Assembly: GCA_965227515.1 (NCBI GenBank)
Contig: CBDDFZ010000001.1
Coordinates: 1,600,001 to 1,664,000 of the forward strand
Direction: 5' to 3'
Length of the DNA: 64,000 nucleotides
Source: Alphaproteobacteria bacterium
Lineage (GTDB): Bacteria; Pseudomonadota; Alphaproteobacteria; CALKHQ01
The position numbers and the translations under genes were made by a program. Within the stretch, counting starts at the first letter, position 1. Each line of letters starts with the position of its first letter. Shown here piece by piece: positions 3,786-56,649 of the stretch. The notes under the pieces are model-generated. The model was not told the origin of the DNA, did not search any database, and saw only the letters and a list, made by a program, of their open reading frames with translations.

Positions 3786-3817
3786 GTAGCCCGGGTGGAG
3801 CGTAGCGCAACCCGGGG
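3786..3817 (+). repeat. GTAG-family REP upstream of RAYT
   Basis: GTAG-CCCGGGTGGAGCGTAGCGCAACCCGGG hairpin. Confidence 0.9.
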
Positions 3818-3853: not shown

Positions 3854-4381
3854 ATGGTTCGGTATCGCAGAAACCTCGTTCCCGGTGGCTCCTACTTTTT
3901 CACCGTGACCTTGCGGGACCGTCGGTCGAGCATTCTTGTCGACCAGATTGGCGCATTGCGAGATGCGTTCAGGGTTACGCGCGTCGCGCAACCATTCTCG
4001 GTCGACGCCATCGTTGTGTTGCCGGATCACATTCACACGGTGTGGACGCTTCCTGGAGGTGATGCCGATTACGCTGGGCGTTGGCGCCGTATCAAGGGCC
4101 GGTTCACATCACGGATAAAATCTCAGGAGGGGCAACTCGTGCCAAATGAACGGGGTGAGCATGCCCTCTGGCAGAGTCGGTTCTGGGAACACACAATTCG
4201 TGACGAGGACGACATGGAGAAGCACGTCGCCTACATCCACCACAATCCGGTGAAACACGGGCTGGTTCGACGCCCGTGCGACTGGCCGTATTCATCCTTT
4301 CATCACTACGTTCGCATGGGACATTTGCCGGCAGATTGGGCAACGGCGCCAGAGGGCCTGTCCGAGAGATTTGGCGAATAG
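3854..4381 (+). CDS. REP-associated tyrosine transposase (RAYT, Y1 HUH family)
   Basis: YRR...GGSYFFTV, VVLPDHIHTVW (HUH), LWQSRFWEHTIRDE, YIHHNPVKHGL, WPYSSF; flanked by inverted REPs. Confidence 0.95.
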   Translation: MVRYRRNLVPGGSYFFTVTLRDRRSSILVDQIGALRDAFRVTRVAQPFSVDAIVVLPDHIHTVWTLPGGDADYAGRWRRIKGRFTSRIKSQEGQLVPNERGEHALWQSRFWEHTIRDEDDMEKHVAYIHHNPVKHGLVRRPCDWPYSSFHHYVRMGHLPADWATAPEGLSERFGE

Positions 4382-4397
4382 CGGCTGGACGGGAATG

Positions 4398-4429
4398 CCC
4401 CGGGTTTCGTTTCACTTCACCCGGGCTAC
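4398..4429 (-). repeat. GTAG-family REP downstream of RAYT (inverted)
   Basis: CCCCGGGTTTCGTTTCACTTCACCCGGGCTAC. Confidence 0.9.
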
Positions 4430-8754: not shown

Positions 8755-9576
8755 ATGGGTGATGCGGCTAAGAACGGCCCGGGGGTCGGCGGTGCGGAGA
8801 GCCCGACCACGCTGAAGGGCGTGCACCGGGCGCTGCAGGTCATCGAGTACATCGCCGAGCATCCGGGGCGGGCGAGCGAACTGGCGGAGGGGTTGGGCAT
8901 CTCCTGGGCGACCATGCACCGCACCTTGTCGGCGCTGGAGAAGACCGGGTTCCTGGAGCGCGACACGGAGAGCAACCGCTACCACATCGGCCCGCGTATG
9001 TGGTTCATCGGCTCCACCTACCTGGCCCGCCACCCGGTGCTGCAAGTGGCGCACCCCTATCTCTCGGAACTGGCCATGCGCTGCGACGGCTCGGTGCAAC
9101 TGGTCGAGCGGCTGGGCCGGCAGGCGGTGACGCTCTATGCCCACACCGCCTCCGGCGAGGTGATCACCAAGTCGACCTATGGCCACCACTTCCCGCTGCA
9201 CTGCGGCTCAAAAGGGCAGGCATTGCTGGCGTTCGAGGCACCGGCTTTCGTCGAGGACTACCTCAACGGCCCGCTGGAGACCCTGACCGCCGAGACGATC
9301 ACCGACCCCAATGAGCTGCGCGACCGGCTGGCCGACATCCGCACCGCCGGCTTCGCGGTGACCGCGGGCGACGTGCAGCCCTTCACCGGATCGCTGTCGG
9401 CGCCGGTGTTCGACCGGTCCGGCAAGGTGGTGGCGGCGGTGTGCATCATCGTGCGCCGCGCGGTGCTGGAGGACGAGAAGCAGGCGGCCGAGTTGCAGGA
9501 CCGGGTCCAGAACGCCGCACAGTCGACCTCGATCGCGCTCGGCTGGGCCCCGCGCCCGGTAACGAGGGCGGGGTAG
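8755..9576 (+). CDS. IclR-family transcriptional regulator
   Basis: RALQVIEY..HTH (ATMHRTLSALE), PLHCGSKGQALLA, SAPVFDRSG. Confidence 0.93.
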   Translation: MGDAAKNGPGVGGAESPTTLKGVHRALQVIEYIAEHPGRASELAEGLGISWATMHRTLSALEKTGFLERDTESNRYHIGPRMWFIGSTYLARHPVLQVAHPYLSELAMRCDGSVQLVERLGRQAVTLYAHTASGEVITKSTYGHHFPLHCGSKGQALLAFEAPAFVEDYLNGPLETLTAETITDPNELRDRLADIRTAGFAVTAGDVQPFTGSLSAPVFDRSGKVVAAVCIIVRRAVLEDEKQAAELQDRVQNAAQSTSIALGWAPRPVTRAG

Positions 9577-9598
9577 AGGGACGCCCGTCCCCTCCCGT

Positions 9599-9697
9599 TG
9601 TCATCCTCGGCCGGAGCGAATGCGGAGTGCCGGGGATCCATTTCACGGATCGCGCGATAACCGGAATGGACCCTCGGCCTGACGGCCAAGGGTGACA
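9599..9697. repeat. GTCAT...TGAC palindromic repeat, family A
   Basis: TGTCATCCTCGGCC...GGATCCATT / AATGGACCCTCGG...GGGTGACA. Confidence 0.75.
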
Positions 9698-9718
9698 ATA
9701 TTGAATTTGCCTGGATCG

Positions 9719-10287
9719 CCGCGCCCCGTAACGAGGGCGGGGTAGCCCAACACCCGGTCGTCATGCCCGCACTTGTTGCGGGCATCCACGTCTTGGCAAC
9801 GGTCGATGAAAGTCGTGGATGGTCGGGACAAGCCCGACCATGACGTGTTTGGGGGTGTGGCCGTCCCTACGTCTTCCGCTCGGTGTAAGACCCCTGCTTA
9901 TGAAAGAATCGTAGCCCGGGTGGAACGAAGTGGAACCCGGGGACATCGAACTGCCGGCGGCCGAACCCGGGTTTCGCTACGCTCCACCCGGGCTACGCAT
10001 TGCGCTGGGCCCCGCGCCCGGTAACGAGGGCGGGGTAGTCGAACACACGGTCGTCATGCCCGCACTTGTTGCGCGCATCCACGTCTTGGCAACGGTCGAT
10101 GAAAGTCGTGGATGGTCGGGACAAGCCCGACCATGACGTGTTTGGGGGTGTGGCCGTCCCTACGTCTTCCGCTCGGTGTAAGACCCCTGCTTATGAAAGA
10201 ATCGTAGCCCGGGTGGAACGAAGTGGAACCCGGGGACATCGAACTGCGGGCGGCCGAACCCGGGTTTCGCTACGCTCCACCCAGGCT
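9719..10287. repeat. 293-bp tandem duplication made of gene-tail copies, a CGTC hairpin and a GTAG REP doublet
   Basis: Near-identical units offset by 293 bp: hairpins 9759-9845 and 10052-10138; REP doublets 9911-9996 and 10204-10287. Confidence 0.92.
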
Positions 10288-10560
10288 TCTGTAACGGGCC
10301 ATTGTTGGTCAATCCCTTTTTCGTCGTCCCGGCGCCTGGGTCATGCTTCTGTACGGGGTCGGCGCACGGCCGCCACCAAGATGGATATGCGAGGATCGGT
10401 CGGTCCAATCTACGGAAGCGTGCTCTCGTGCGAGGCGACATCCTGGATGGCGGCCTGACCTGATCCATCGTCCCGGCGCGGGACGGCGCTTGACGGGCCG
10501 GTGTCTGCGCCCGCCGAAGCTCGTGTGCTGGTTCTCCCTATGCGGCGGTCGTCTTTGCCA
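10288..10560 (-). ncRNA. Putative bridge/seek RNA region of IS110 copy 1
   Basis: Contains segments matching the circle junction (10346-10353, 10378-10384) and the REP target (10410-10415, 10440-10450); exact transcript ends unknown. Confidence 0.65.
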
Positions 10561-11598
10561 TTAGGCCGCTGCCATCGCCGGGCGCACCGGTCCGGCATGG
10601 TTGAACGCGGTGCCGTCAACCCACATCCGGTGCATGATCACGGCCAGCCGGCGCGCCAGCGCGACCTTCGCCTTCCTCATGCCGGCTCGCCTGGCCAGCT
10701 TCATCGCCCAGCTCTTCAACCACCCGCCCTTGATCGGCCGGGTCAGGATTACGTGCGCCGCCTCGTAAAGCGCTGCACGCACGTCCGCATCGCCCACCTT
10801 CGAGATCCGCCCCGTCATCTCGCTCTCGCCCGACTGGCGCTTGGTCGGCGTCAGGCCGAAGTGCGCCCCCACCAGGCGCGACGAGGCAAACCGCCCGGGG
10901 TCGTCCACTCCCGACAAGTAGGTCAGTCCGACAATGCTCCCCACGCCCGGCACCGTCATCAGCAGGCGAGCGCGATCGTCCGCCTGCGATGCCGCTCGGA
11001 CCTGCCGGTCCAGCGCCGTGAACGATAGCAACAGGCCATCGCGTGCCGACAGCAGCGCCCCCGCCTCCAGTACCGGATGCCCCGCCACAAGCTCCGAAAT
11101 ACGTGTCGAAAAGCTGCGCCTGGTGGTGTGCCCTACCTTCAGCCCGAAGTTCCGCAGCTGACCACGAAGGTGCATCTCAAGATCGTGCAGCTTCGCGCGG
11201 AGCTGGTCGCGACCCTTCAAAAGGGCCCGCATCTCCTGGGCCGCCAAAGACTTGCAGTGAACCGGACGAAACCAGCCCACACGCATCAGCTGAGCAATCC
11301 CGCGTGCGTCCGAGCGGTCCGACTTCACCGGCATCGTCGAAAGGGCCCGCGCAACATGACGCGTCTCCAGCAACTCAACCGAAAGACCGCCCTCGCTACA
11401 TCCCCGCACAAGCCATTGCGACAACGGCCCCGCCTCAAGACCAATCCGCTCAACCGAAATCCCCAAAGACCCAAACCACAACAACAAACCCGCCGGCGTG
11501 CTCGCAATACGAGCCTCGCAGACAATCCCGCCCGCGCCGTCAACAACGCACACCGATGACCATTCCAAAGAAACGTCAATCCCGGCATAGTAGTTCAT
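10561..11598 (-). CDS. IS110-family DEDD recombinase/transposase
   Basis: AGIDVS, IGLEAG, KSDRSDA (DEDD), PGVG, RQSGE serine motif, VALARRLAVI; 2-aa deletion relative to copy 2. Confidence 0.96.
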   Translation of the reverse strand: MNYYAGIDVSLEWSSVCVVDGAGGIVCEARIASTPAGLLLWFGSLGISVERIGLEAGPLSQWLVRGCSEGGLSVELLETRHVARALSTMPVKSDRSDARGIAQLMRVGWFRPVHCKSLAAQEMRALLKGRDQLRAKLHDLEMHLRGQLRNFGLKVGHTTRRSFSTRISELVAGHPVLEAGALLSARDGLLLSFTALDRQVRAASQADDRARLLMTVPGVGSIVGLTYLSGVDDPGRFASSRLVGAHFGLTPTKRQSGESEMTGRISKVGDADVRAALYEAAHVILTRPIKGGWLKSWAMKLARRAGMRKAKVALARRLAVIMHRMWVDGTAFNHAGPVRPAMAAA

Positions 11599-11768
11599 GG
11601 TCGTCTCTCCTCGATGTCTTGGAGCGGCAAACCCGACTCCGTGTATGACACCGACATCTTGAGGGACGACCACTCATGCACGCCACCAAACAAGGGCCGT
11701 TAGCCCATCTACGCATCGCGCTGGATCGCCGCGCCCGGTGACGAGGGCGGGGTAGCCAAACACCCGGT

Positions 11769-11891
11769 CGTCATTGCGAGGAGCGCGGCACGCGCGACGC
11801 GGCAATCCAGAGGGACATTAGGCACGTGCACCGCAATCGCCTGGATCGCCCATCGGTTTTTGGGGCCGCCATTTGGCGGCTCGCGATGACG
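11769..11891. repeat. CGTC-tagged palindromic repeat, family C
   Basis: CGTCATTGCGAG...GCAATCCAG / CTGGATCGCC...CTCGCGATGACG; related copy at 17053-17165. Confidence 0.8.
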
Positions 11892-11899
11892 GCAAGAGT

Positions 11900-12685
11900 C
11901 TACGTCTTCCGCTCGGTGTACGACCCCTGCAGGTTCTGGAACATCTCCACCAGCGCGTCGACGGCGGCGTCGATCATGACCTTGCCGGACTCCGCGGTCG
12001 CGTGCTTCGGCGCACCGAAGATCGACGCATGGTTGGTGGTCGGGTTGGGCCGGCGCTGATAGGTGCGCACCGGCTCCACCGGTGCCACCAGGTCCCAGCC
12101 GACCAGCGGCGCGTGCACGCCCTCCAGCCGGTCCATGTGCACCAGCTCCGGCCGCGTCGCGAGCTGGAACGAGGTCTCGAACTCGCCGCCATGGCCCATG
12201 CCGCCGACCTCCGACTTGCGTGCGGCATGGATGGCAGCGGCCCCCGGCTCCCAGTAGCTGACGGCGGAGACCTTGAACTCGTAACGCTCGTCCAGATCGT
12301 CGACCAGCCGGCGCGCCACCGCATCGTTCGAGGTGCCGTTGGGCCGGTTGCCGTTGAGGATGATCAGGTGCTTGAAGCCCTGCTTGATCAGCGCGCTGCC
12401 AACCTCGTAGACCAGTTCCTGGTAGGTCGGGATCGACAGCGAGATGGTGCCCATGAAGTGCTCGAAGGTCTTTGAGATGCCATAGGCAATGGGCGGCGCC
12501 ACCACCGCGCCGATCCGCTCCGCCACCCGCAGCGCCATGTATTCGGCCTGGTGGGTGTCGGTGTCGACCGGCATGTGCGGGCCGTGCGCCTCGGTCGCGC
12601 CGGTGGGCAGGATGACGGCCCGCCCCTCGGCGACGACCTCCGCCACTTCGTCATAGGTCATGGTCGAAAGGGCAACGTTCATCAT
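11900..12685 (-). CDS. Creatininase/amidohydrolase family protein
   Basis: LPTGATEAHGPHMPVDTD, GHGGEFETS motifs. Confidence 0.9.
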   Translation of the reverse strand: MMNVALSTMTYDEVAEVVAEGRAVILPTGATEAHGPHMPVDTDTHQAEYMALRVAERIGAVVAPPIAYGISKTFEHFMGTISLSIPTYQELVYEVGSALIKQGFKHLIILNGNRPNGTSNDAVARRLVDDLDERYEFKVSAVSYWEPGAAAIHAARKSEVGGMGHGGEFETSFQLATRPELVHMDRLEGVHAPLVGWDLVAPVEPVRTYQRRPNPTTNHASIFGAPKHATAESGKVMIDAAVDALVEMFQNLQGSYTERKT

Positions 12686-12802
12686 TGTCTCCCGCGCGCA
12701 CATCGGCTTGTGTTGTCCGTCTGCCGGATATTATGCTCGGATAGCGGACATCGACAACTGTCCGCATATCCACCCGTCACCACCCGCCGAGAGTGCCGCC
12801 CA

Positions 12803-55175: not shown

Positions 55176-55439
55176 TCTGTAACGGGCCATTGTTGGTCAA
55201 TCCCTTTTTCGTCGTCCCGGCGCCTGGGTCATGCTTCTGTACGGGGTCGGCGCAGGGCCGCCGCCAAGATGGATATGCGAGGATCGGTCGGTCCAATCTA
55301 CGGAAGCGTGCTCTCATGCGAGGCGACATCCCGGATGGCGGCCTGACCTGATCCATCGTCCCGGCGCGGGACGGCGCTCGACGGGCCGGTGTCGGTGCCC
55401 GTCGAAGCTCGTGTGTCGGTTCTCCTTATGCCGCGGCCA
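55176..55439 (-). ncRNA. Putative bridge/seek RNA region of IS110 copy 2
   Basis: Conserved with copy 1; target-like segments at 55298-55303 and 55328-55338. Confidence 0.65.
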
Positions 55440-56483
55440 TCATGCTGTCGCCATCGCCGGGCGCACCGGTCCGGCATGGTTGAACGGTGTGCCGTCAACC
55501 CACATCCGGTGCATGATCACGGCGAGCCGGCGCGCCAGCGCGACCTTCGCCTTCCTCATGCCGGCTCGCCTGGCCAGCTTCATCGCCCAGCTCTTCAGCC
55601 AGCCGCCCTCGATCGGCCGGGTCAGAACCACGTGCGCCGCCTCATAGAGGGCCGAGCGCACATCGGCGTCCCCCACCTTCGAGATCCGCCCCGTCATCTC
55701 GCTCTCGCCCGACTGGCGCTTGGTCGGCGTCAGGCCGAAGTGCGCACCCACCAGGCGCGACGAGGCAAACCGCCCGGGGTCGTCCACTCCCGACAAGTAG
55801 GTCAGTCCGACAATGCTCCCCACGCCCGGCACCGTCATCAGCAGGCGAGCGCGATCGTCCGCCTGCGATGCCGCTCGGACCTGCCGGTCCAGCGCCGTGA
55901 ACGATAGCAACAGGCCATCGCGTGCCGACAGCAGCGCCCCCGCCACCGCCTCCAGTACCGGATGCCCCGCCACAAGCTCCGAAATACGTGTCGAAAAGCT
56001 GCGCCTGGTGGTGTGCCCTACCTTCAGCCCGAAGTTCCGCAGCTGACCACGAAGGTGCATCTCAAGATCGTGCAGCTTCGCGCGGAGCTGGTCGCGACCC
56101 TTCAAAAGGGCCCGCATCTCCTGGGCCGCCAAAGACTTGCAGTGAACCGGACGAAACCAGCCCACACGCATCAGCTGAGCAATCCCGCGTGCGTCCGAGC
56201 GGTCCGACTTCACCGGCATCGTCGAAAGCGCTCGCGCAACATGACGCGTCTCCAGCAACTCAACCGAAAGACCGCCCTCGCTACATCCCCGCACAAGCCA
56301 TTGCGACAACGGCCCCGCCTCAAGACCAATCCGCTCAACCGAAATCCCCAAAGACCCAAACCACAACAACAAACCCGCCGGCGTGCTCGCAATACGAGCC
56401 TCGCAGACAATCCCGCCCGCGCCGTCAACAACGCATACCGATGACCATTCCAAAGAAACGTCAATCCCGGCATAGTAGTTCAT
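55440..56483 (-). CDS. IS110-family DEDD recombinase/transposase
   Basis: Same DEDD and QSG motifs as copy 1; intact 347 aa. Confidence 0.96.
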   Translation of the reverse strand: MNYYAGIDVSLEWSSVCVVDGAGGIVCEARIASTPAGLLLWFGSLGISVERIGLEAGPLSQWLVRGCSEGGLSVELLETRHVARALSTMPVKSDRSDARGIAQLMRVGWFRPVHCKSLAAQEMRALLKGRDQLRAKLHDLEMHLRGQLRNFGLKVGHTTRRSFSTRISELVAGHPVLEAVAGALLSARDGLLLSFTALDRQVRAASQADDRARLLMTVPGVGSIVGLTYLSGVDDPGRFASSRLVGAHFGLTPTKRQSGESEMTGRISKVGDADVRSALYEAAHVVLTRPIEGGWLKSWAMKLARRAGMRKAKVALARRLAVIMHRMWVDGTPFNHAGPVRPAMATA

Positions 56484-56649
56484 GGTCGTCTCTCCTCGAT
56501 GTCTTGGAGCGGCAAACCCGACTCCGTGTATGACACCGACATCTTGAGGGACGACCACTCATGCACGCCACCAAACAAGGGCCGTTAGCCCATCTACGGG
56601 TCCGTGGCATCGCGCCCGCCGACGCACGAGTACGAGGGAAGCAACAGCA

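Follow-up and report, generated by a model that had tools for sequence, protein, structure and literature searches.

The spacer between an IclR-family regulator gene and a convergent creatininase-family gene holds an array in which the ends of both genes recur, and sequence comparison has confirmed these tails as true local duplicates. The array clearly exemplifies a type of repeat cluster that has been described before; it is not a new mechanism. The explanation that we favour, with a little better than even confidence, is a tandem REPIN cluster as in Pseudomonas fluorescens SBW25, built on a very short spacer between convergent genes. Because that spacer is very short, the copied flank holds both gene ends.

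The features below are numbered by position in the 64,000-nt stretch of DNA that was analysed (the window).

3786..3816 (+), GTAG-REP unit left of the RAYT, same family as the array doublets
3854..4381 (+), RAYT (REP-associated tyrosine transposase), 175 aa; NCBIfam NF047646, 189.1 bits (cut-off 80); Pfam Y1_Tnp
4399..4429 (-), GTAG-REP unit right of the RAYT, inverted, same family as the array doublets
8755..9576 (+), IclR-family regulator gene; Pfam IclR_C (1.2e-33) and HTH_IclR; start uncertain (8680 or 8755)
9542-9576 (+), T1, the live IclR tail (3' end of the gene)
9577..9710, hairpin A, CGTC-type, two-armed, low-copy subfamily; a palindrome with 8 genome blastn matches, to its right half only
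9711..9745 (+), T2, relic IclR tail; 26/27 against the gene, 8 further nt common to T4 only
9746..9866, element B1 (leader 9746-9757, core 9758-9846, trailer 9847-9866); 189 genome blastn matches
9867..9897 (-), R1, relic creatininase tail; 30/31, the single difference a synonymous third position
9898..9910, AT-rich 13-nt filler between R1 and the REP doublet, recurring at 10191-10203
9911..9996, REP doublet D1 (REPIN); units 9911-9941 (+) and 9966-9996 (-)
10004..10038 (+), T3, relic IclR tail; 35/35 against T1, left flank T4-like (11/12)
10039..10159, element B2, in-situ copy of B1; the two 98.3% alike, next best copy 95.4%
10160..10190 (-), R2, relic creatininase tail; 30/31 against the gene, identical to R1 (31/31)
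10204..10287, REP doublet D2; right arm interrupted by IS110, the CTAC end resuming at ~11709-11712
10288..11708 (-), IS110-family insertion sequence; transposase 10564-11673; Pfam DEDD_Tnp_IS110 and Transposase_20; NCBIfam NF033542, 228.8 bits
11721..11755 (+), T4, relic IclR tail; 26/27 against the gene
11756..11899, element C, CGTC-type, two-armed, another subfamily; 81 blastn matches, leader the same as that of B1
11900-11930 (-), R3, the live creatininase tail (last 31 nt of the gene)
11900..12703 (-), creatininase-family gene; Pfam Creatininase (1.2e-58); orthologues up to 76% identity

Duplicated gene ends

The IclR 27-mer at 9550-9576 is found again at 9719-9745 (1 mismatch), 10012-10038 (0) and 11729-11755 (1), for a total of 4 in the window where 100 shuffles yielded none; the 31-nt creatininase tail has 3 matches, again with none in 100 shuffles. 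By genome-wide blastn (4 IclR-tail and 3 creatininase-tail matches) both tails are confined to this 2.3-kb spacer of a 5.5-Mb genome. Blastn and shuffles bear out what an earlier note on this DNA had reported, that the IclR tail recurs, with a 35/35 copy at 10004-10038, and that the creatininase tail recurs at 9867-9897 and 10160-10190 (30/31 each). The order of modules it gave, from the live IclR tail and hairpin A through two blocks of tail, B, reverse tail and doublet to the last tail, C and the live creatininase end, is also correct.

The C-terminus of the IclR gene (...ALGW...) agrees with that of its relatives, and the IclR tail has dyad symmetry, with two inverted arms of 8-10 nt around an 8-nt centre. 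T2 (from 9711) and T4 (from 11721) are 33/35 alike, including 9711-9718, 8 nt that do not match the gene. The three differences between the tails and the live genes all fall at synonymous third positions (chance ~0.04 if mutations are random).

Both coding strands end in GTAG, which the earlier note had taken for the RAYT tag. The endings are as described, and the coincidence is weak: GTAG ends are common in the genome (611 of 3935 predicted ORF ends), so that two out of two has a chance of ~0.024. The tails were rejected as canonical GTAG REPs, the tag lying 3' of the tail's hairpin on the GTAG-reading strand, which is the wrong side relative to the consensus. A REP-supplied stop codon was likewise rejected as an explanation at the array (the pattern is present at 5 of 3935 ORF ends, about one of them a real REP); the stop of both genes is not REP-derived.

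Rfam returned only sub-threshold miRNA-hairpin look-alikes (22-31 bits against gathering scores of 94-95). A promoter and terminator scan gave 0 promoter-like and 3 terminator-like signals, the latter all within or at the ends of IS110 and compared with a shuffled expectation of 1.9. In the best explanation of the sequence the spare tails are inert relics.

REP doublets, CGTC-type elements and IS110

D1 is an inverted repeat with 32-nt arms (9910-9941 and 9966-9997) that are 88% complementary, and the array doublets consist of two inverted REPs able to form a hairpin, that is, REPINs. Their family comprises 136 units in 80 clusters genome-wide, 55 of the clusters being inverted doublets, and the tag is that of the GTAG superfamily (G in 135 units, T in 117, A in 132 and G in 134). 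The RAYT lies ~5.5 kb upstream of the array in the same window, and its flanking REPs are those of the array, as for the cognate RAYT of a tandem REPIN cluster. The reading of the doublets as GTAG REPs with a RAYT close by is supported.

Hairpins A, B and C form one superfamily with a common TCGTCAT end and a shared architecture, and the leader belongs to the family. The TCGTCAT end has 62, 30 and 38 copies in the three subfamilies, and 67 two-armed elements were found, compared here with the CGTC-REP definition as given in the abstract of PMC3733652. What had been described as four palindrome families comes down to one GTAG-tagged REPIN plus a putatively CGTC-tagged element with two arms, present as three subfamilies. 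Before the stop codon, B has a right flank of 20 nt and C one of 8 nt; the two have nothing in common, which makes an exchange of B for C conjectural.

All 20 full-length IS110 copies in this genome occupy a single insertion point within the CTAC end of a REP, flanked by CT on either side, in the manner of REP-targeting IS110 elements. IS110 was considered as a cause of the duplications and set aside; two of the three duplicated REP loci have it, with a chance of ~14% by rough estimate.

A tandem unit copied in place

Positions 9719-9994 and 10012-10287 are a tandem pair with a 293-nt period and 97% identity over 276 nt. Each unit runs from tail through B element, reverse tail and filler to REP doublet. 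A REPIN is thus repeated with its flanks in the order long, REPIN, short (~200 nt before, 2-8 nt after), which is the arrangement of a tandem cluster. The doublet lies 13 nt from the reverse tail at its GTAG end and 2-8 nt from the first IclR-derived base at its CTAC end, placing it on a novel joint with the creatininase tail on one side and the IclR tail on the other.

D1 and D2 are 97.9% identical over 97 nt and at most 90.8% identical to any other copy; they also have the same 13-nt filler, for which blastn found no donor in the genome, and the same 31-nt tail boundary. Since filler, boundaries and identity are shared in this way, the alignments point to one arrival and one copy: D2 is an in-situ copy of D1, not a second arrival. 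This contradicts the earlier view that doublets arrived successively.

Of 284 aligned positions, 13 differ between the two units, 10 of these lying in the 47 nt of tail and leader and 3 in the other 237, and two haplotypes of tail and leader alternate along the array. The copies are shown by this comparison to have exchanged sequence after copying. T3 equals T1 while T2 resembles T4, and no single history fits both without added gene conversion. Because the tails are mosaic, the array is not the clean record of successive events that it had been taken for.

Flank duplication across the genome

In a flank test of the 80 REP clusters, 2 exceeded all controls and 1 was marginal, leaving at least 77 with no duplicated flank by that test; a k-mer scan added 1 more locus, so flank duplication is present at no more than 4 of 80. 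A second tandem unit, at C1:4016.4-4018.4 kb, has a period of ~313 nt, an IS110 and a CTAC end at most 9 nt from the joint. Among the CGTC elements, 65 of 67 lack duplicated flanks and the only 2 with them are at the array. The duplications seen range from 27 to ~190 nt, unlike a transposon target-site duplication, whose length is roughly constant. A scan of 3935 predicted ORF ends gave no general excess of gene-tail copies (15 scoring at least 20 downstream against 10 in upstream control windows), and the downstream matches are, by inspection, mostly tandem paralogues or internal repeats. One weak gene-tail match, at C1:2111112, was put down to chance. In another part of the genome, a protoglobin gene lies between duplicated copies, ~90 nt long, of an FtsH gene end.

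The earlier note had coupled the arrival of REPs to block duplication and called for a genome scan for other such loci; the scan yields a few, and the coupling is not general. In its full form, that proposal has the RAYT duplicate the whole intergenic block, as a very long target-site duplication, each time a doublet arrives. A doublet at each joint of reverse tail and tail, the RAYT 5.5 kb away and the second locus with a tandem unit ending at a REP doublet would all fit. We nevertheless regard it as improbable, given that D1 and D2 point to a single arrival and that duplications are missing from nearly all REP clusters of the genome. RAYT models build on Y1 chemistry of the IS200/IS605 type, which is not known to duplicate its target. 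No target duplication is reported in the available text of PMC3116915.

Four direct-repeat tails bracketing discrete modules, the dyad symmetry of the IclR tail and the bracketed protoglobin gene could also be read as att-like accretion, in which the IclR tail is a recombination site and tail-bearing small circles integrate serially, each leaving a tail copy. This has a slim chance of being right. The modules contain the creatininase tail and so are locus-derived, no tail copy elsewhere in the genome could serve as a donor site, and the first appearance of the second reverse tail is left unexplained. No integrase or recombinase was present among 11 neighbouring ORFs scanned within ~10 kb (a GC3-filtered, non-exhaustive list), the sole mobile-element enzymes near the array being the RAYT and the IS110 transposase. 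By these scans the array has neither the recombinase beside the element nor the att copy on a donor that mark an integrative element.

Relatives, strains and assembly

Among 43 creatininase loci of relatives, 13 have an IclR match and 11 of these are convergent. The stop codons overlap by 4 nt in 5 of the 11, are separated by 4-41 nt in another 5 and by 283 nt in 1; in 10 of 11 distant relatives, then, they overlap or have no more than 41 nt between them. The gene pair is absent from the 40 nearest genomes available for comparison, with no orthologous locus among them, and the best matches in genome and metagenome collections have 76-77% protein identity. The order of events is accordingly inferred from one genome, with comparison loci from distant relatives only.

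Four public runs were compared, as short contigs that break at repeats, and no single contig spans the array; relatives' contigs end at 9549-9565. Contigs of run X3, from the same strain, have 0 differences at 8900-9571, 10111-10282 and 11686-12600. In run X1 (~97% identical) the creatininase end is followed on one contig by another 115 nt, 36 of them from a B left arm. This is a weak hint, and suggests B beside the live creatininase end as an older state.

The breaking of short-read contigs at every repeat, with none spanning the array, is what a collapsed or expanded repeat would also give. Such an assembly artefact is unlikely, to the point of being barely credible, because the 13 differences between the units, over 284 positions, form a structured pattern and the same-strain contigs match without a difference over three junction-bearing stretches; the genome, moreover, was assembled in 2 contigs.

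X1, which seems to have B where the present genome has C, bears on a further alternative, that DNA of a related strain with another element at the same spot (B against C) and another leader recombined unequally and stacked two versions of the spacer. The alternating haplotypes and the exclusively synonymous tail differences speak for such mixing of alleles. We think it unlikely as the explanation, since alone it does not put a REPIN at the joint, three substitutions are a small sample, and the support from X1 is one short contig with its middle not covered.

Model for the history of the array

We return to the tandem REPIN cluster on a very short spacer, for which we infer a history of at least three steps. 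In the first, a tandem duplication would have taken in everything from ~35-45 nt within the IclR gene up to 31 nt within the creatininase gene, leaving a REPIN plus 13 nt of foreign filler exactly at the new joint. Most likely, a fork that had stalled or been nicked would have gone through a single replication restart or template switch, copying the REPIN into the joint. In the second step, unequal crossing-over or gene conversion between short repeats would have produced the second unit and the mosaic tails. In the third, CGTC-type elements may have been added or exchanged (A; B against C), one of which would have brought a 27-nt duplication of the tail. IS110 entered one REP after the unit had been copied.

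Since the doublet sits on a novel joint between gene ends, the sequence is suggestive of a linked event that joined the first duplication and the REPIN. If insertion is uniform over the ~318 nt of neutral DNA that a two-block array offers, chance alone would put a REPIN no more than 15 nt from the joint in ~5% of cases. The tails are single-locus, whereas elements B and C have 81-189 genome copies. The spare tails would survive because, with no free spacer, tolerated rearrangements must leave one intact end per gene.

More tentatively, and on present evidence rather doubtfully, REPINs, and perhaps CGTC hairpins too, may generally enter by a replication-coupled route, a fork restarting upstream and leaving the element on the joint of a duplication of 27 to ~190 nt. 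Such events would be rare in general and the sole survivors where genes abut, as they regenerate both ends. If this route is true, the gene-end relics are a readable footprint of the "second mechanism" of REPIN clusters.

The array bears on how REPs and REPINs move and on how ordered tandem clusters form. What was copied as flank here is coding sequence whose polarity and ancestral state are known, so the breakpoints are readable at single-base level: 31 nt into the creatininase gene and ~35-45 nt into the IclR gene, with REPIN and 13-nt filler on the joint. The array offers a concrete substrate for asking whether RAYT nicking or hairpin-stalled forks create duplications, and it demonstrates selection on abutting gene ends filtering which rearrangements persist. 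It also cautions against taking short "orphan" gene-end copies in REP-rich spacers, which are relics, for hidden exons or regulatory tails.

Relation to known systems

In Salmonella, recombination between two distant REPs already in place gives rise to REP-mediated tandem duplications of the chromosome that are kilobases long, and the BIMEs of E. coli are arrays of alternating REPs. The locus described here has in common with these the REPs at duplication joins and the REP arrays; unlike the Salmonella duplications, its unit is 293 nt and its first joint needs no second REP. The insert resembles the REP-targeting IS110 elements IS621 and ISPpu9, as they are described in the available sources, in its DEDD/IS110 transposase and fixed REP target, a likeness that accounts only for the 1.4-kb insert and not for the tail duplications.

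The GTAG and CGTC REP superfamilies (Di Nocera et al. 2013, PMC3733652), so far as the available text describes them, share with the array the GTAG at the 5' end of the doublet stem-loops, the CGTC-containing end of A, B and C, and a location between convergent genes near stop codons. GTAG REPs often supply a TAG stop, according to that text; here the gene's own TAG ends both genes, and about one clear REP-supplied stop was seen in 3935 ORF ends. Words beginning with "duplicat" have 0 occurrences in the text available.

The closest counterpart is SBW25 (Bertels & Rainey 2011, PMC3116915), where the accessible text describes 16 tandem REPIN clusters "including the flanking sequences", with a unit of long 5' flank, REPIN and short 3' flank. 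The earlier note had known no named mechanism for such an array; the kind has been described, and its formation is called a "second mechanism" in that text, which leaves the mechanism open. Compared with the account given there, the array here differs in its host, an alphaproteobacterium by its best relatives, and in its REP sequence. Only here are the last codons and stops of two convergent genes copied, together with another mobile hairpin element, and only here does the REPIN lie on a joint that was impossible before the duplication. Common to both systems, on the same account, are near-identical tandem REPINs with flank, the long-short flank order, a RAYT flanked by the same REP, and the rarity of the arrangement, which is seen at a minority of loci (16 clusters in SBW25, no more than 4 of 80 in this genome).

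Repeated gene ends between two convergent genes

The spacer between the two convergent genes (9542-11930, 2.3 kb) carries repeated copies of both gene ends. The live genes and tails, with the relic copies, are as follows.

Genes and gene tails at the array locus
IclR-family regulator gene, plus strand, ends at 9576 (Pfam IclR_C, 1.2e-33)
9542-9576, live IclR tail (T1)
9711-9745, relic IclR tail (T2)
9867-9897, relic creatininase tail (R1)
10004-10038, relic IclR tail (T3)
10160-10190, relic creatininase tail (R2)
11721-11755, relic IclR tail (T4)
11900-11930, live creatininase tail (R3)
Creatininase-family gene, minus strand, ends at 11900 (Pfam Creatininase, 1.2e-58)

All the tail repeats claimed from the sequence alone were recovered. 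The IclR tail 27-mer has four copies in the window at no more than one mismatch and the creatininase 31-mer has three, against no matches to either in 100 shuffles. When each part of the array was searched by blastn against the whole 5.5-Mb genome, both tails were confined to this locus (4 + 3 hits). The segments 9719-9994 and 10012-10287 are tandem copies, 97% identical, at a period of 293 nt. Relic and live tails differ by three substitutions, all at synonymous third positions. Either the live copy changing under selection or another allele contributing sequence would fit this pattern, three sites being too few to say more. The relic tails gave no sign of function, an Rfam search returning no family matches, and no promoter-like or terminator-like sites were found in the array outside IS110.

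The remaining components belong to dispersed families.

Dispersed families represented in the array (blastn hits in the genome unless stated)
Hairpin A, 8
Hairpin B, 189
Hairpin C, 81
REP doublet, 117
IS110, 24 matches (20 of them full-length copies)

Hairpins A, B and C are built alike, with two arms, each a stem-loop behind a TCGTCAT end, and are preceded by a CA-rich leader (12-20 nt) that is weakly conserved. Because this leader precedes all three, the 12 nt just downstream of the TAG in the relic tails are the element's own sequence. Judged by description rather than by family alignments, A, B and C fit the CGTC-tagged superfamily of Di Nocera et al. (PMC3733652), the available text of which contains no word beginning with "duplicat". 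The doublets (REPINs) are GTAG-tagged REP pairs; a fuzzy genome search found 136 units in 80 clusters, including 55 inverted doublets, with the tag nearly invariant. An ORF at 3854-4381 (175 aa) lies between two inverted REPs of this family and matches the NCBIfam model for REP-associated tyrosine transposases (RAYT) with 189 bits (cut-off 80). This RAYT and the IS110 transposase are the only mobile-element enzymes near the array; no integrase or recombinase was found among 11 neighbouring ORFs scanned within ~10 kb. The 1.4-kb insert is an IS110-family element, and all 20 full-length copies in the genome occupy one position in the REP CTAC end, a behaviour known for this family from the accounts available. 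A second copy in the window (55176-56590, 96% identical) has inserted into a sister-subfamily REP (…CCATCCGGGCT). A second Y1-transposase gene (G000:C1:2017088-2017375, on one of the genome's two contigs) lacks REPs and is flanked by ~19-nt terminal inverted repeats, whose sequence recurs next to a mosaic of repeats at C2:440150.

Both gene ends read GTAG, which had been taken as the RAYT tag. The same four bases close 611 of the 3935 predicted ORF ends, and in the IclR tail GTAG lies 3' of its hairpin, unlike in a canonical GTAG-REP unit. We treat its presence at both gene ends as coincidence (chance ~0.024). TAG terminates 1493 of the 3935 ORFs (38%, with a crude GC3 filter), a high share for a genome of 67% G+C that may in part reflect false ORFs.

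The ancestral state of the spacer

The IclR-creatininase pair is absent from the family's three other genomes. More widely, 13 of 43 loci with a creatininase 59-76% identical have an IclR hit. Eleven convergent loci were analysed; L062 (IclR on the same strand) and L069 (IclR 2.6 kb away) were left out. The stops overlap by 4 nt at five of the 11, are separated by 4-41 nt at another five, and at the last are 283 nt apart with a hairpin element between them. Since the genes abut or lie no more than 41 nt apart in 10 of 11 loci, an abutting pair is the likely ancestral state. The present spacer of 2323 nt is added material. In a contig from a public sequencing run of a ~97% identical relative, the live creatininase end is joined to 115 further nt that include the left arm of B, a weak hint of an older state of the locus.

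REP arrival and duplication of the target

The earlier note proposed that arrival of a REP doublet is coupled to duplication of its target. For all 80 REP clusters, the 300 nt on either side were compared, with 299 mismatched pairs as controls. At the array locus the flanks share a word of 129 nt, the longest of all. Next is a word of 52 nt at G000:C2:439850, which lies within a C element; one other cluster shares 15 nt and all the rest 12 nt or less, the control maximum being 14 nt. One further REP locus (G000:C1:4016.4-4018.4 kb) came from a k-mer scan for local repeats unique to their locus. In this region (4016400-4018450) a ~313-nt unit of an A-type hairpin element and a REP doublet is duplicated in tandem; IS110 lies in the first doublet, and 21 nt of the element's leader are missing from the first copy. 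When the flanks of 67 two-armed CGTC elements were compared in the same way, repeats turned up only at the two elements of the array locus. Among the last 60 nt of the 3935 predicted ORF ends, 15 have downstream copies scoring at least 20, versus 10 in upstream controls; on inspection the scan's matches contain only three orphan tails (the array locus, G000:C2:1039942 and an FtsH-type gene). The flank tests and the ORF-end scan therefore indicate that duplication is a rare outcome and not a property of REP insertion. As a general rule the proposed coupling fails: it would apply to few of the 80 clusters.

A second orphan tail lies on the minus strand of G000:C2:1039850-1039970. There a 35-nt insert is flanked by two copies of a 48-nt sequence made up of 30 coding nucleotides, the stop codon and the start of a B-type element; a full B element comes next. 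An FtsH-type gene (Peptidase_M41) at G000:C1:1337640-1338640 (L191, 640-1640) has its last ~90 nt repeated 893 nt downstream. Between the two copies lie a 17-nt tandem run and, on the reverse strand, a protoglobin gene (PF11563); the live gene now stops earlier than a reading of the relic would. At L191 a long duplication of a gene end thus encloses an insertion the size of a gene, and no REP takes part. A dense mosaic at G000:C2:439500-440150 holds three tandem copies of a 43-nt hairpin unit together with a REP doublet, a C element and a chimera whose left half is C and whose right half is B; its two C left halves are near-identical and lie 294 nt apart.

Order of the copies

The array had also been taken as a log of successive REP arrivals. 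Within it, the two copies of B are 98.3% identical (best other copy in the genome 95.4%), the two doublets 97.9% (best other copy 90.8%), and R1 and R2 match at 31/31. Both units have the identical 13-nt filler and tail boundary. Since the members of each pair are mutually closest and share filler and boundary, the second doublet arose by copying of the first in situ. Of 13 differences between the units, 10 fall within the tail and leader (together 47 nt) and three within the remaining 237 nt. T3 equals T1 at 35/35 and has a T4-like left flank (11/12), and T2 and T4 are alike at 33/35, including 8 nt foreign to the IclR gene. Mosaic tails of this kind would result from gene conversion or unequal crossing-over between copies, and for that reason the order of the copies is unreadable as a time series. 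We found no single history that covers every feature of the array with fewer than one conversion step.

A REPIN on the joint

The observation behind the earlier note is confirmed, and its interpretation is supported in part: what survives is the place of the REPIN. The doublet occupies the joint between creatininase interior and IclR interior. Such a joint cannot predate a duplication. It has 13 nt of AT-rich filler on one side of the doublet and 2-8 nt on the other. Random entry of a REPIN into a finished two-block duplication would be expected to land this near the joint about 1 time in 20 (an estimate for ~318 nt of neutral DNA). The doublet at the second tandem locus likewise has its CTAC end within 9 nt of the joint. 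We propose that the first step may have been one fork-restart or template-switch event that placed the REPIN on the joint. With no free spacer, an event severing a gene from its last codons would be tolerated only if the full end were regenerated, and the duplicated tails may be the price of regenerating the gene ends.

The earlier note knew no named mechanism for such an array. In the text available, Bertels & Rainey already describe this kind of cluster in SBW25 (16 ordered clusters "including the flanking sequences"), and ascribe it to a second mechanism that they leave unidentified (PMC3116915). The literature searched gave no account of relic gene ends within REPIN clusters; the Figure S7 supplement of that paper may hold comparable cases. 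The SBW25 unit consists of a long flank, a REPIN and a short flank. Because the unit of the array has the same design, we file it with the SBW25-type tandem REPIN clusters, of which it is an unusually legible example.
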